Assembly: GCA_934255485.1 (NCBI GenBank)
Contig: CAKQOG010000011.1
Coordinates: forward strand, 5,072 to 69,071
DNA length: 64,000 bases
Source of the DNA: an uncultured Prevotellamassilia sp.
GTDB taxonomy: Bacteria > Bacteroidota > Bacteroidia > Bacteroidales > Bacteroidaceae
Reading direction: 5' to 3'
Shown: positions 1,932 to 59,004 of the stretch, in pieces
Numbering within the stretch: the first letter of the stretch is position 1
How the letters are laid out: the number at the start of each line of letters is the position of its first letter
The notes under the pieces: model-generated
The model's input: only the letters and a program-made list of their open reading frames with translations
What the model was told of the DNA's origin: nothing
Database searches by the model: none
Translations under genes and position numbers: made by a program

Positions 1932-3398
1932 TTATACATTCTTTTTGAGTTTTAGTCTATGATCTATGCATTGTGGCAGTTCTTCCTCATAGTGTGTCAC
2001 CATAATGAGCGTTTTTGAGGAATCTTGCATATAGCGATCTATCAATGCCTGTGCACGCAAGCGATAGTGATTGTCGAGACCATGAAAAGGCTCATCGAGA
2101 ATAAGCAAATCAGGATTTTTAACAAAAGCACGTACCAAGAGCACAAGTCGTTGTTCGCCCGATGAGAGTCGCATATAGTTGCTTTCGGCAAGGTGGGCTG
2201 CGCCAAAGGCTTGCATCCACTCTAAGCACTGCTCTCGCTCTGTTGCAGTGGGACGTTTATAAAGTCCGATGGTGTCGTGCATACCACTTGCCACTATATC
2301 AATGGCAGGCAGTGGCCGCTTGTAGGTAGAGAATATCTCGGGCGATACATAGCCAATGTGTTTCTTTATTTCCCAAATGCTCTCGCCCTGTCCGCGTTTG
2401 TTGCCAAATAGTCGGATGTCGCAAGCATAGGCTTGTGGGTTATCGGCACATACCAGCGAAAGAAGGGTTGATTTTCCAGCCCCATTTTCTCCCATAAGAG
2501 CCCAGTGTTCACCACGTTTCACGTTCCAATTAAGGTTGTGCAAAATGGTTCGTTTGCCGTATTGTATGTGGATATTTCTAAAGTCTATCACGTCGATACA
2601 GCCATTACTTTCCGTTTTTGCTTGTATGGGCAAATCTACCGCTTGTACATTGTTAGTGGCAGCTGCCGAAGCATGTGCAGACATAAATTGGCTATACGAT
2701 ACCGGCTCCTCCACCCTCTTGTCTGCTACCCACACCACACTATTTACGAACGATGGAATATCCTCTTTACGGCTCACCACAAGCACCAATGTGAGGCTTT
2801 CGGATAGCTTTTGCAACACGTGGGTTAGCATTGCACGTGCCTCCTTGTCAAGTCCTATATAGGGATTATCTACGATGAGCACTTGCGGATTAGACATGAG
2901 CATCTTAGCCAATTGCATACGCCGCAACTCACCGCTCGATAGTAAGTTGATGGGCTTTTCGATGTGTTCAAAAATACCCAATTCGTTAAGCAGTTCATGG
3001 TTGGGCAAGGCATCAACCAATGCAATATCTGCCGTGCTCCATGCCTTGAAAGCCTGTTGCAACACCTCGCCCACAGTGGGAAATGTTTGTTCGTCGGCTT
3101 GGTTCCACCGTTGTTGGTAATAGGCAGGTTCGTTGCCTCCATACACATCTCTAAAGGTAACAAGTCTGACGTTATTTGCCGCCTTATTGCCCAATGTGCC
3201 AAAATCATATTCTATGGCATCGCCCAGCAAAGGGTGCGCCCCCGTCAATATATCAACAAGGAGCGATTTGCCTCCACCATTTGGACCACAAATAGTTATG
3301 CTCTCGCCCTTGGCAAGTTGAAAATTGAGTGGGCATGCCAAACGATAATCGGGATGACGTGTCACGCCATTGGTTATCCTTATGAGTGTATTTGCCAT
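1932..3398 (-). CDS. ABC ATPase with two tandem nucleotide-binding domains and no membrane domain (ModF-like)
   Basis: Two Walker A motifs (GPNGGGKSLL, GENGAGKSTLL), two signature motifs (LSSGELRR, LSSGEQRL), two Walker B/D-loops (LIVDNP, LILDEP). 488 aa, the size of E. coli ModF. Confidence 0.8.
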   Translation of the reverse strand: MANTLIRITNGVTRHPDYRLACPLNFQLAKGESITICGPNGGGKSLLVDILTGAHPLLGDAIEYDFGTLGNKAANNVRLVTFRDVYGGNEPAYYQQRWNQADEQTFPTVGEVLQQAFKAWSTADIALVDALPNHELLNELGIFEHIEKPINLLSSGELRRMQLAKMLMSNPQVLIVDNPYIGLDKEARAMLTHVLQKLSESLTLVLVVSRKEDIPSFVNSVVWVADKRVEEPVSYSQFMSAHASAAATNNVQAVDLPIQAKTESNGCIDVIDFRNIHIQYGKRTILHNLNWNVKRGEHWALMGENGAGKSTLLSLVCADNPQAYACDIRLFGNKRGQGESIWEIKKHIGYVSPEIFSTYKRPLPAIDIVASGMHDTIGLYKRPTATEREQCLEWMQAFGAAHLAESNYMRLSSGEQRLVLLVRAFVKNPDLLILDEPFHGLDNHYRLRAQALIDRYMQDSSKTLIMVTHYEEELPQCIDHRLKLKKNV

Positions 3399-3728
3399 TT
3401 TTAGCTATTATAGTTTTCAATCTGTTAGCAAAAATAGTGTAAGGCGAACACCAAACAAAGCTTACCTTGGTTTTGCATTCGCTTTGCACTATTTTACGGC
3501 AAAATTACGCATTCTTTGTAAAAAAGCCACATTACCATGAATAAAGATGTAATAGTTATCTAACAATGCTACTTAGGGAGGCCTACCGATCCATAACCTA
3601 ATAGTTAGTTATAACCCCTAAAGTGGTAACAAATATTTACTTTTAAAACTTTCAAAATAGAATGAAATCTGTACACTTATTATCATCACACGTTATTTTT
3701 TCATCCTATTTTTTTGTGTTAGAAAACT

Positions 3729-3802
3729 AAGGATACGTATCCTTGTGAACTTAGAATACGCTTGTTAGCATGCAAGGATACGTATGCTTATGGCATAAGG
3801 AT
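3729..3802. repeat. Three copies of a 16-bp perfect palindrome AAGGATACGTATCCTT (3729-3744, 3764-3779 with C>G variant, 3787-3802), each followed by CTTGTGG-like flank
   Basis: Direct reading. The same unit recurs as a 4-copy tandem array at 58639-58744. Confidence 0.9.
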
Positions 3803-4135
3803 ACGTATCCTTGTGGTGTTATAACACGTTTATAAGGCATTAAGCACACAAATCAAGCGCAACAAACAAAGCTAAGTAACTGATTTTCAATACTATTAGC
3901 AAATCTTCTCAAAATTCTCGCAAAATGGCTCAACAGTCTTTTTGTTTCAAAACAACGAAGTTTTGAGCATTATGACAATCAAACTCCAAGAGCATTTTGT
4001 AATAACCATACAAACTTTATCAAGCTACGTCGCTCGTTACTCAATGATTGTTAATAAACCATTTTTTAATCATTTTTTTTTGCCAAATACTTGCATTGTA
4101 TTGATATTCTATCTATCTTTGCACCGTATTCAAAG

Positions 4136-4150
4136 TTGTAATGATTACAA
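4136..4150. promoter_or_regulatory. PerR/Fur-type 7-1-7 inverted repeat TTGTAAT-G-ATTACAA, 14 bp upstream of the Fur-family start codon
   Basis: Perfect 15-bp palindrome. One mismatch per half-site from the PerR-box consensus TTATAATNATTATAA. Overlaps the likely -7 region downstream of a TTTG at 4117-4120. Confidence 0.5.
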
Positions 4151-4163
4151 AATAGAAAAGAAT

Positions 4164-4607
4164 ATGGATGCAAACAATGTATTAGATTACTTATACCGAC
4201 ACGACATAAAGCCATCAATGCAGCGCATGGCGGTAATGAGCTACCTAATGGAGCATCGCACGCATCCTACGGCAGACGAGATATACAATGCACTGCACAC
4301 CGAAATGCCTACCTTGTCGAAGACCACGGTGTATAACACCCTCAAGGTTTTAACCGATAAAGGAGCTGCACTGCAACTAACCATCGACGAAAAGAACTGC
4401 TGTTTTGATGCCGATGTTACACCACACGCACATTTCTTGTGTACCCACTGCGGAAGGGTATACGATATGGCACTATCGAACAAGACACTCTGCAAAGACG
4501 CCATCATACCCAAGAATTTTAGGGTAGACGAGGCTCAACTCTACTTTAGAGGTTGCTGTCCCGAATGTGCTAAAGCCGAAAAATCACTCGATAAAACTTG
4601 CTCTTGA
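4164..4607 (+). CDS. Fur-family metalloregulator, PerR-like (peroxide/metal-responsive repressor)
   Basis: HAHFLCTHCGRV (HxH + CxxC) and CCPECAKAE (CxxC) structural-Zn/regulatory-metal motifs; winged-helix N-terminal region. The ORF-track start at 3942 is an AT-rich, low-complexity extension; the Met at 4164 (MDANNVLDYL) is the likely start. Confidence 0.8.
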   Translation: MDANNVLDYLYRHDIKPSMQRMAVMSYLMEHRTHPTADEIYNALHTEMPTLSKTTVYNTLKVLTDKGAALQLTIDEKNCCFDADVTPHAHFLCTHCGRVYDMALSNKTLCKDAIIPKNFRVDEAQLYFRGCCPECAKAEKSLDKTCS

Positions 4608-4725
4608 GTGGTGCTTTATTATAGAACAAAAGAACATAACAAACATTTGCCAACCATGCAACACAAGAACTGCATGCACGGCAATAGGACAATTATTAAC
4701 ATAACAATTTAAAACATAACTCATC

Positions 4726-19006: not shown

Positions 19007-19047
19007 AAGTAAATATAAGTCTCATCTTACCACCGTACACAACTTGG

Positions 19048-19097
19048 TTGCTGTTTGTTGCTGTTTGTTGCTGTTTGTTGCTGTTTGTTGCTGTTTG
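19048..19097. repeat. Tandem repeat of 10-bp unit CTGTTTGTTG (4 full copies + partial)
   Basis: Direct reading at 19051-19097, in the 5' region of the radical SAM gene. Confidence 0.9.
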
Positions 19098-33988: not shown

Positions 33989-34444
33989 TCTGCCATTACT
34001 ATTTGTTTTACCTTACAAAGATAATTTAATAATTAGCAATACAGACAATACAGGATAATTAAATCAAGTTATCACATTTTATTTAGCTGTGTTATCCCTA
34101 AATGATTGTCTATACTTTAGCCTTATTAGGCAATTCAACTGCAATTAACTAAAAGCAACAGAAAACAGATACTACACACACAATTAACTATTGATTATCA
34201 ATGTATTCACAAATTTACATGTACAAGAATATACCATTTTGTGTATTCTATGTATATAGATTTTACAACAGATATACTGCCTTATACACGCTTTATAAAT
34301 AAAAAAACAAAAACAGAATGGGCGCTTGATTATCGCACATGTTTCATCGCTTTTCTGCAAAATGACATGCTATCGTTATCTACTCAAACTACACTACTTG
34401 TCTTTAAAGAATACGAATAACGTTGATTAAAAACACGCTTTAAG

Positions 34445-34560
34445 TTTGCTCACTCCGACCGCAATGAATGCTCATTCCGACCGCAATGAGTGTTCACTCC
34501 GACCGCAATGAGTGCTCACTTCGACCGCAATGAGTGCTCACTCCGACCGCAATGAGCAAA
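34445..34560. repeat. Five tandem copies of a 22-bp unit (CCGACCGCAATGAGTGCTCACT consensus), flanked by the short inverted repeat TTTGCTCA / TGAGCAAA
   Basis: CCGACC recurs at 34455, 34477, 34499, 34521(TCGACC) and 34543, an exact 22-bp period. It lies within an ORF-free 1.1-kb AT-rich spacer. Confidence 0.9.
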
Positions 34561-35000
34561 CTATAGAGCGTATGCTTACATAACTTATGTACACTTTATT
34601 GTAGAACTTCCCTATAATTATTACGCTACATAACAAGATTTGTAGCGTATGGCATAAAAGTGAGAAACATATTATAAGAGTTATTATTATCCGCTAAAAC
34701 ATTCAAACTCTATTTGACTTTTCGTATCAACTGACAGCAAGTATAATGGATGTGAAGAGACTCTTATTGTAGATAAGGTTCTTTAGAACTGCTATAAACG
34801 ATAGATTAAGATGACATTTATTCCAATGAATAACACCACGGAAAGAGAACATTTTTATCAAACAGTCAATACTAAATAAGTGTACAAACTTACTTATCAT
34901 TTAAACAGGGGCTTGCCAATGCATAAATCAGATAGATAAACTATGTACTTTTAGCGGATAGTAATATATAAGAATGCTTCCTTAGAGGATATAAGCACAT

Positions 35001-35046
35001 AAAAAAGCGCATTCTGAATGCCTTTTACAGCTATCAAAATGCGCTT
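35001..35046 (-). terminator. Rho-independent terminator of nifJ (minus strand)
   Basis: On the minus strand, AAGCGCATT...AATGCGCTT stem followed by TTTTTT (plus-strand A-run at 35001-35006), ~40 bp past the nifJ stop. Confidence 0.55.
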
Positions 35047-35081
35047 GTTAGTTATTTAAATCTCAGAAAAGAGATTTGCTA

Positions 35082-57589: not shown

Positions 57590-58450
57590 ATGAAGTCATT
57601 GTTTGCTTTTATATTAACAATAGGCCTTTTAGCCTCGTGTAGCGAGGAGCCAAGCATATCGCAAGAGCCTCGATTGGTTGTTGAGGGGTGGATAGATAGT
57701 GATGGCTATCCCATGGTGTTTGTTACCACGTCGATGACGGTTGACGGGTCTGACAACCTTTCGTCTGACCTCACAGAACACTTGATCAAATGGGCAAAAG
57801 TAACTGTAAGCGATGGTACAACCAAGGTGGTGCTAACAGGCAAGTACATGAAAAACTACTATCCACCCTATGGGTTTACCACCACCGAGCTAAAGGGTAA
57901 ATGTGGCAACACCTACCATCTAACGGTAGACTATCCGCCCTATCATGCCGAAGCTACCACCACCATTCCGCCCCGCCCCTTGATTGACTCTATAATGGTG
58001 GCCCCACTCTCGCCTTCAGATACGCTATATGGCGTAAAACTACACATTTCTGAGAATGCCATGCACCAAGGTGGCTACAAACTATTTGCCATGCGCAAAC
58101 ACAAAGATAGCTATCCGCTCTCGTGCTACATGGGTACATACCAGTCCTCTAAGCTCAACTTGCCATCTCAACTGCCCGTATACAATGTACACAAGATGGA
58201 TAACAAGGACTTTACGCCCTACTTCTCACCTACTGACACGCTGGTCATTAAAGCAGCTGTGGTAGACGATGATGCGCTGCAATTTTGGAATGCCTTTGAG
58301 AGCAATGTGTCGCTCTCTAAAAGTCCGTTCTTAGCTCCTAACGAAAACATTAAGGGCAACATTACGGGCGCACTTGGCTATTGGTTTGGTTATGGCTGTA
58401 ACTACTACTTGGTTTATCCACCTCAAACACTCCATGCCGAGAATCCCTAA
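57590..58450 (+). CDS. DUF4249-like lipoprotein, the common partner of this TonB-dependent receptor subfamily
   Basis: Lipobox LLASCSEEP; 12-bp gap to the receptor gene. Confidence 0.45.
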   Translation: MKSLFAFILTIGLLASCSEEPSISQEPRLVVEGWIDSDGYPMVFVTTSMTVDGSDNLSSDLTEHLIKWAKVTVSDGTTKVVLTGKYMKNYYPPYGFTTTELKGKCGNTYHLTVDYPPYHAEATTTIPPRPLIDSIMVAPLSPSDTLYGVKLHISENAMHQGGYKLFAMRKHKDSYPLSCYMGTYQSSKLNLPSQLPVYNVHKMDNKDFTPYFSPTDTLVIKAAVVDDDALQFWNAFESNVSLSKSPFLAPNENIKGNITGALGYWFGYGCNYYLVYPPQTLHAENP

Positions 58451-58638
58451 ATTGTTCTATTTTTCCGTTTTTGGCGATTTTTCACCTCTCATATTTGCTT
58501 TGTTTTTGACAACGCAAAATAAATTCTGAACGAGCGCATTTTTGGACAAATCTGGTAAGTCATTGATTATCAATATCTTACAAATTTCACAATCAATAAA
58601 TTCGGAATTGCCACCCCTAAAAAGGCTTTGTTACACCC

Positions 58639-58744
58639 TAAGGATACGTATCCTTAGCTCACAAGGATACGTATGCTTGTGGTATAAGGATACGTATGCT
58701 TATACCCTAAGGATACGTGTTCTTGTGGTAAAAGCATACGCATT
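58639..58744. repeat. Tandem array (period 23-24 bp) of four copies of the AAGGATACGTATCCTT palindrome family plus a degenerate fifth
   Basis: Copies at 58639, 58662, 58685 and 58708, each followed by a variable 7-8-bp spacer with CTTGTGG-like flank; AAAGCATACGCATTT at 58730. Confidence 0.9.
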
Positions 58745-59004
58745 TAAGCAAAAAGTGAGTGCATTTTTACTTTATTCAAGGTTAAAAATGCCTTTTCAAG
58801 CACTTTTTGAGAGCTATTTTACGCTAAAATCTGTACAAAAAATATTGTTCTATTTTTCCTTTCAATGCTTCACTGCCAATAGTATTTTTGCCACAAAATG
58901 TGGCTTAAATATGCCCTATCTAACAACTAAGCGCACATACAGATGTGTTTACTTATAGCATCTGCTTGCGCGCTTTTATGGAAAAAACAAGTGCTTAGGG
59001 CAAA

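Follow-up and report, generated by a model that had tools for sequence, protein, structure and literature searches.

The 64-kb stretch of DNA analysed here (the window) carries two arrays of short palindromes, each in a long gap between genes. Site 1 occupies part of the 765 bp that separate a divergent ABC-ATPase gene (1932-3398, − strand) from a Fur-family gene (4164-4607, + strand), and site 2 part of the 554 bp from the DUF4249 gene to a GNAT gene convergent with it. The 16-bp palindrome AAGGATACGTATCCTT has seven matches in the window at up to three mismatches against 0.19 expected, a number reached in 0 of 100 shuffles, with three matches at site 1 and four at site 2 (Table 1). The three perfect or near-perfect palindromes that the original prediction placed upstream of the Fur-family gene are thus real, but the third ends at 3812 rather than at 3802, and the start-to-start spacings are 45 and 23 bp rather than 34-44 bp. 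The tight tandem array that it reported 55 kb away is site 2, for which Tandem Repeats Finder returns 4.4 copies at a 23-bp period. Site 1 likewise consists of five 23-bp slots, the 45-bp gap being filled by a degenerate unit, and the CTTGTGG sequence described earlier as a flank of each copy is present but belongs to the 23-bp unit itself, as its G-rich spacer of 5-7 nt. The description of the sites was therefore real but incomplete, as both are five-unit arrays inside a composite element of ~0.4 kb, located at ~3598-3994 (+ strand) and ~58442-58887 (− strand).

Table 1 Features of the two composite elements in the window
Feature	Position	Strand	Basis and remarks
Site 1 left flank module, degenerate, contains TTTCAAAATAGAA	3598-3688	+	nhmmer E=5.7e-3; aligned with other copies
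Site 1 unit 1, perfect palindrome AAGGATACGTATCCTT	3729-3744		Identical to the orthologous UBA5903 unit
Site 1 unit 2, degenerate TAGAATACGCTTGTTA, in 23-bp register	3752-3767		UBA5903 slot holds the alternative palindrome ATAACACGTTTATAAG
Site 1 unit 3, AAGGATACGTATGCTT, one mismatch	3774-3789		G variant also in the orthologous UBA5903 unit
Site 1 unit 4, perfect palindrome	3797-3812		Motif matches and UBA5903 comparison
Site 1 unit 5, alternative palindrome TATAACACGTTTATAAG, ACGT-centred, in register	3820-3836		16/17 identical to UBA5903
Site 1 right flank module, with degenerate M1 TGATTTTCA at 3881-3889	3860-3994	+	nhmmer E=2.5e-10 and alignments
Site 2 right flank module, with M1 centred on TTGATTATCAA (58563-58573)	58442-58604	−	nhmmer E=4.7e-12
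Site 2, four units starting at 58640, 58663, 58686 and 58709 (0, 1, 1 and 2 mismatches)	58640-58724		Motif matches, Tandem Repeats Finder
Site 2 fifth unit, degenerate AAGCATACGCATTTAA, in register	58732-58747		Repeat comparison
Site 2 left flank module, type 2, contains GGAAAAATAGAACAATATTTTTTGTACA	58786-58887	−	nhmmer E=2.2e-6

Each array unit comprises an 18-bp palindrome, with half-sites TAAGGATAC and GTATCCTTA, and a 5-nt spacer, either G-rich (GGGTG type) or C-rich (CACCC type) and found in both orientations, giving the period of 23 bp. Frequent unit variants alter only one half-site (for example, AAGAACACGTATCCTT). The non-coding element as a whole is ordered as a left module, the array, ~50 variable nt, a motif that we call M1, and an AT-rich right module. 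M1 is a bipartite palindrome, TAA-N5-TGATWATCA-N5-TTA, centred on TTGATWATCAA. Similarity among non-orthologous copies starts sharply ~125 bp to the left of the array, where the left module begins with GTGAACTATTTTTGACATTTTGAACTTTCAAAATAGAA (type 1) or CCGAAAAATAGAACAATATTTTTTGTACA (type 2), and the right module ends ~175 bp from the array. In type-2 copies GGAAAAATAGAACAAT is repeated at the right end. At site 2 this terminal repeat lies at 58451-58469, in a right module that adjoins the DUF4249 stop codon, and recurs in the left module at 58844-58862. Conserved motifs sit at fixed offsets from the array, and the flank alignments agree. Profile HMMs of the flanks, built from copies in the Prevotellaceae bacterium UBA5903 alone, match both window sites and nowhere else in the 64 kb (nhmmer); no flank module without an array was found in ~230 kb of UBA5903 sequence, and none was found in the loci of other genera. 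The site 1 element is an older, degenerate copy.

The sister species UBA5903 entered the analysis through a scan in which each species was represented by a single genome and the pattern was a pair of adjacent cores (GGATACGTAT-N11-14-GGATACGT); it returned ~30 loci from this single MAG and scattered matches elsewhere. Together with its metagenome (sample ERZ808240), UBA5903 contains at least 35 distinct arrays, and three type-1 left ends occur in one 44.9-kb contig; by extrapolation, a genome would carry tens to ~100 arrays, or, judged from local density, arrays at ~50-150 intergenic positions. Five slots are the commonest size (17 of 30 complete arrays; range 2-6), and in many copies the array is inverted relative to the flanks, so that both orientations occur. 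None of 33 arrays overlaps an ORF of at least 80 aa, each lying at least 114 bp from the nearest one. The neighbouring genes show every arrangement (++ in 7, −+ in 7, −− in 7 and +− in 5), and element orientation relative to them is unbiased (15:11 and 16:14). These data bear out the dispersed REP/MITE-like reading of the original prediction, at the level of an array in its ~0.4-kb scaffold. Viral contigs scanned with the 16-mer gave single chance-level matches and no arrays, and a phage origin was set aside. A metagenome scan with a left-module pattern gave chance matches and the UBA5903 species only (ERZ808240), with no new lineages and no autonomous parent element.

Several UBA5903 contigs end in arrays (the end of L034 and start of L108; the start of L037; L-numbers are our labels for fetched loci), and a gap of Ns lies inside an array at L042 285-449. 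A better assembly of the UBA5903 organism (ERZ808240) spans array breakpoints. The arrays are thus points at which short-read MAGs of this lineage break.

The window derives from a congener of UBA5903, not from the same genome, and the two are 77-89% identical around both sites. Both elements have counterparts at orthologous positions in UBA5903 (L084 for site 1; L034 and L108 for site 2). At site 1 the three strong cores are identical between the species at 48 of 48 positions, whereas the three spacers agree at only 9 of 21 (Fisher p=3e-8), and the adjoining genes are ~77% identical. The private G variant of unit 3 is common to both species, which argues against recent gene conversion. Concerted evolution rather than selection could account for part of the core conservation. 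The site-2 cores of UBA5903 are less perfectly conserved than those of site 1. Within the species, no length change was seen at site 1 across eight strains, and at site 2 strain L135 carries an exact 46-bp (two-unit) deletion, the one case among the distinct strain contigs compared; unit number changes occasionally, by whole units. Among arrays of UBA5903 and its metagenome, terminal units are perfect in 21 of 28 and the central unit in 0 of 14. Units that are best conserved at the array edges are the opposite of the usual pattern of minisatellite decay.

More distant relatives keep the scaffold with other palindromes. L129 (Fur-family protein 75% identical) has a full element at site 1 with five TTAGAAACGTGTTCTAA-type units, while at site 2 L121 (DUF4249 protein 65% identical) has M1 and CTTGGTTGAGCAACCAAG units arrayed every 23 bp, again with GGGTG/CACCC spacers, and L124 (58% identical) has GTGATACGCACGTATCAC units. 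This comparison shows that the scaffold is old, as are its 23-bp period and its palindromic character, and that each lineage has a palindrome sequence of its own. In L127, which comes from the sample that also yielded L121, the DNA upstream of the Fur-family gene carries another gene and no element. The element is a repeat specific to this lineage, present in many copies, confined to intergenic DNA and inherited at orthologous positions.

The other possibility raised by the original prediction was an operator array for a dimeric regulator, which at site 1 would control the Fur-family/rubrerythrin operon. In-phase perfect palindromes 350-435 bp upstream of the gene, with cores kept in the sister species, would suit such an operator, but the same array occupies dozens of unrelated intergenic sites, including those between convergent genes such as site 2, and shows no orientation bias. 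The prediction had itself allowed that many copies at unrelated intergenic positions would speak against a locus-specific role, and this is essentially what the genomes contain. The units also differ in sequence from a Fur/PerR operator (TTATAAT-N-ATTATAA type, near the promoter) and lie 350-435 bp away, whereas the gene has a conserved box of its own near its start. This box, the separate PerR-type site noted earlier, exists as a 7-1-7 inverted repeat, TTGTAAT-G-ATTACAA (TTGTAATGATTACAA), at 4136-4150, with the Fur-family start codon 14 bp downstream. Four relatives conserve it, namely L127, L129, L131 and, with a single base changed, UBA5903. It is most likely the Fur/PerR-type autoregulatory box of the gene. 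L127, whose Fur-family protein is 77% identical and whose upstream region is rearranged, lacks the element yet keeps the box. Control of the operon through site 1 is extremely improbable; the site 1 array is not the operator of this locus, and such arrays should not be mistaken for regulators of adjoining genes.

The element might instead act as RNA, as a multi-copy small-RNA gene or RNA element whose transcript would run from the left module through five hairpins and serve as a protein sponge, stabiliser or terminator. In type-1 left modules a box, TATTTTTG (TAnnTTTG), faces the array; we take it to be a perfect Bacteroidetes-type −7 box, so that transcription of the element is possible. The site-2 element folds far better than shuffles (z=−4.7), and per-copy folding gives a long right-module hairpin that is strong in about a third of copies (~9 of 28). 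However, the opposite strand folds equally well (z=−5.7). Across 126 units read on the flank-defined strand, non-Watson-Crick positions comprise 37 G·T versus 50 A·C pairs, with no strand bias, and for the right module RNAalifold returns zero conserved pairs. M1 is conserved in sequence at positions 1-4 and 10-12 from its centre on both arms, while at positions 5-9 pairing is no commoner than for independent columns and covariation is absent, a pattern that is that of a protein-contacted duplex site and not of a hairpin. Rfam 15 has no gathering-threshold match in the window, and its E-value mode returns only generic hairpin/miRNA models far below gathering scores. Sigma-70-type promoters and intrinsic terminators are no more frequent than in shuffles, in a scan that does not extend to Bacteroidetes promoters. 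With the array inverted against its flanks in many copies and the element unbiased in orientation relative to genes, an RNA product seems decidedly unlikely.

REPINs offer a formal parallel, being short palindromes that are high-copy, extragenic, species-specific and persistent at orthologous sites (PMC3116915; bioRxiv 10.1101/2022.05.22.493013). The arrays share all of these properties, and relatives carry different palindromes. In a REP/REPIN-type system the palindromes would be single-strand hairpin substrates of a cognate RAYT (REP-associated tyrosine transposase), and a RAYT-like gene is indeed present at the orthologous site 2 of L121. That gene, however, has GC-rich REPs of its own on either side, which carry a GTAG head and are unrelated to the arrays. 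A REP is a 20-40-nt imperfect palindrome with a 5′ GTAG-type head, whereas the units here read CTAAGGATACGTATCCTTAG and have no such head; they are tandem and in phase, not inverted doublets, and their commonest variants break the hairpin on one arm. No RAYT homologue was found by tblastn in the window or in the UBA5903 loci searched (~260 kb), with the L121 protein as query. We consider a REPIN-type origin very unlikely.

The L121 gene itself (3928-4596, within 3824-4706) encodes a RAYT-like Y1 transposase with a score of 75 bits for NCBIfam REP_Tyr_transpos (cut-off 80). Inverted GTAG-head REPs (GTAGGAGGGCGGG...CCCGCC) and 24-bp direct repeats flank the gene, which has the DUF4249 stop codon on one side of its insertion and the composite element on the other. 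A link between this gene and the arrays was rejected, given its unrelated REPs and the lack of a homologue in the searched sequence, in favour of an independent insertion.

Whether the element is no more than MITE-like DNA, selfish or in decay, that has no function for the host and whose core identity reflects recent spread or gene conversion among copies, is a more serious question. High copy number, strictly intergenic placement, the breaking of short-read assemblies, unit-number polymorphism and the occurrence of the array in both orientations relative to its flanks all fit this account, for which BrickBuilt of Porphyromonas gingivalis provides a precedent (PMC4596501). The hallmarks of a generic MITE were nevertheless not found: the aligned element boundaries have no terminal inverted repeats; a 17-19-bp direct repeat at type-2 ends, considered as a target-site duplication, has the same sequence in all copies and is thus part of the element; and relatives offer no clean empty site, the window having only the same two shared sites opposite the UBA5903 elements. 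Solo M2 end motifs were also considered as empty target sites, but the other window matches (17214 and 25874) are chance A-rich sequences just upstream of gene starts. Mobility is thus deduced from copy number only. Against a purely selfish element, moreover, the two window copies have been retained at orthologous sites in different species, the contrast between cores and spacers and the retained private variant make gene conversion unlikely, and conservation is best at the array edges, contrary to ordinary minisatellite decay. Selfish DNA without function is accordingly an unlikely, if respectable, account of the element.

The explanation that we favour, and regard as probable, is that the palindromes form the core array of a dispersed composite element and likely act as duplex sites for a putative dimeric protein. 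A dimeric protein, already suggested in the original prediction, remains the best reading of core conservation, but on a genome-wide rather than a local scale. The 18-bp palindromes and M1 would be recognition sites in duplex DNA for a putative trans-acting, sequence-specific dimer, which may be a protein of nucleoid or insulator type or else the factor responsible for the past spread of the element. With their 23-bp phasing, five sites would cover 115 bp, or ~11 helical turns, and the dimers bound to them would wind around the helix once. WATCAA-N4-TTA, the sequence of the right M1 arm, presumably matches the IHF consensus of E. coli (WATCAANNNNTTR), although that consensus comes from E. coli and the host is a member of the Bacteroidota. 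M1 could thereby add a bend beside the array, and the strongest (perfect) sites at the array ends, with the adjoining IHF-consensus-like site, may assemble into one nucleoprotein complex. Site specificity would drift between species together with the putative reader protein. A narrower version, in which the sites are selected by the host and a hypothetical Prevotellaceae protein binds the five palindromes and IHF-like bend cooperatively for chromosome organisation or transcriptional insulation, is speculative and, on balance, doubtful. If it is true, co-evolution of protein and site would explain why the 23-bp scaffold is kept at the same locus with different palindromes.

Comparison with described repeats places the element outside known families. 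In BrickBuilt of P. gingivalis a leader and a tail, both conserved, enclose a 23-nt minisatellite; it has 19 intergenic copies and varies by whole units among strains (Klein et al. 2015, PMC4596501). The two share the order Bacteroidales, tandem 23-nt units without separate spacers between non-repetitive conserved flanks, tens of copies that are always intergenic, loci conserved between strains, and gain or loss of whole units. This likeness is one of architecture only. The BrickBuilt consensus AGAYCATARTATCCTCTCRTRTG matches the unit at 10 of 23 positions in the best cyclic ungapped alignment, below the shuffle mean of 11.8, and its IS5-like 12-bp terminal inverted repeats (GAGACCTTTGCA and TGCAAAGGTCTC) do not occur at or near either window element, their window matches at up to two mismatches lying at 1084, 24069, 28498, 31529 and 63189. 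Its leader and tail are called non-homologous to the flanks described here on a comparison by description, not alignment. Unlike BrickBuilt, the arrays have perfect 18-bp palindromes as units, a unit number near five (2-6, versus 1-22.8), and cores under cross-species constraint. With both unit sequence and terminal inverted repeats failing to match, membership in BrickBuilt was rejected.

Among proteobacterial repeats, RIP-RIB elements (BIME-1) are REP pairs flanking an IHF site. The E. coli BIME-1/RIP-RIB elements resemble the present element as intergenic mosaics of short palindromic units and linker motifs found in all gene arrangements, and in the match to the IHF consensus (WATCAANNNNTTR) beside the palindromes, here an E. 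coli consensus applied to an element from the Bacteroidota. They differ in that their REPs are ~35-nt imperfect palindromes with a GTAG head, alternating in orientation and linked to RAYTs, while the palindromes of the arrays measure 18 bp, follow one another in tandem at a strict 23-bp phase and lack a GTAG head, and no cognate RAYT was found for them. Protein-binding arrays are also known: sopC of the F plasmid is made up of tandem repeats that each contain a SopB palindrome of 16 bp, and parS, matS and Noc/SlmA sites are palindromes dispersed over chromosomes. The likeness to these systems lies in palindromes of 16-18 bp suited to a dimer, tandem phasing, conservation without covariation and many chromosomal sites, but to our knowledge nothing like tens to ~100 five-site arrays per genome has been described among them. 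The element is therefore a new lineage-specific dispersed mosaic repeat that resembles BIMEs and BrickBuilt in architecture and is a member of neither. Literature searches returned no Prevotellaceae or Bacteroides family of such a repeat, and BrickBuilt was the only comparable Bacteroidales case found in the searchable literature.

Dispersed intergenic repeats such as REP, BIME and REPIN are well studied in Proteobacteria and barely so in Bacteroidales. The present element is a cleaner system, with few phased perfect palindromes of fixed number in a defined scaffold, and with copies that are orthologous across several gut species and cores that are measurably constrained while spacers drift. 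What reads these repeats is consequently a directly testable question in a common human-gut lineage, and interest in the element will rise if the conserved cores prove to be read by a dedicated protein.

Other repeats were observed in the window and in relatives. A 30-nt inverted repeat at 3431-3495, whose arms are 80% complementary around a 5-nt loop, is found immediately upstream of the ABC-ATPase start and outside the composite element. An unrelated array at 34447-34556, comprising 5.0 copies of the 22-bp unit TGCTCACTCCGACCGCAATGAG with 92% matches, sits in an unusually long 1.1-kb intergenic gap (33989-35081), with an TTGATTATCAA motif 250 bp upstream (34191). It gives no match to the element flank profiles and its unit is missing from every fetched locus; it may represent a sister family of five-unit arrays. 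A perfect 10-bp tandem repeat, GTTGCTGTTT, is present in 5.1 copies at 19047-19097, in a 236-bp gap between two + strand ORFs. In an Alloprevotella MAG, a 4.4-copy array of a near-identical 23-bp unit (TAAGGATACGTATTCTTA+CCACC) occurs without flank modules (L103 2213-2313), and MAGs of other Bacteroidales and of termite-gut Treponema contain 21-22-bp arrays of 3-17 copies with ATACGTAT-type palindromes, an enrichment that is partly a product of the search pattern (side arrays of this kind, in addition to L103: L023, L052, L055, L072, L082, L083, L090, L057 and L065). Upstream of the Fur-family gene of L131 (protein 70% identical), different short repeats of GTGTAGACAAGTGCAGAC type with a period of ~20 occupy 1725-2330, beside two M1-like motifs, TGATAATCAAT and TGAATATCAAT.
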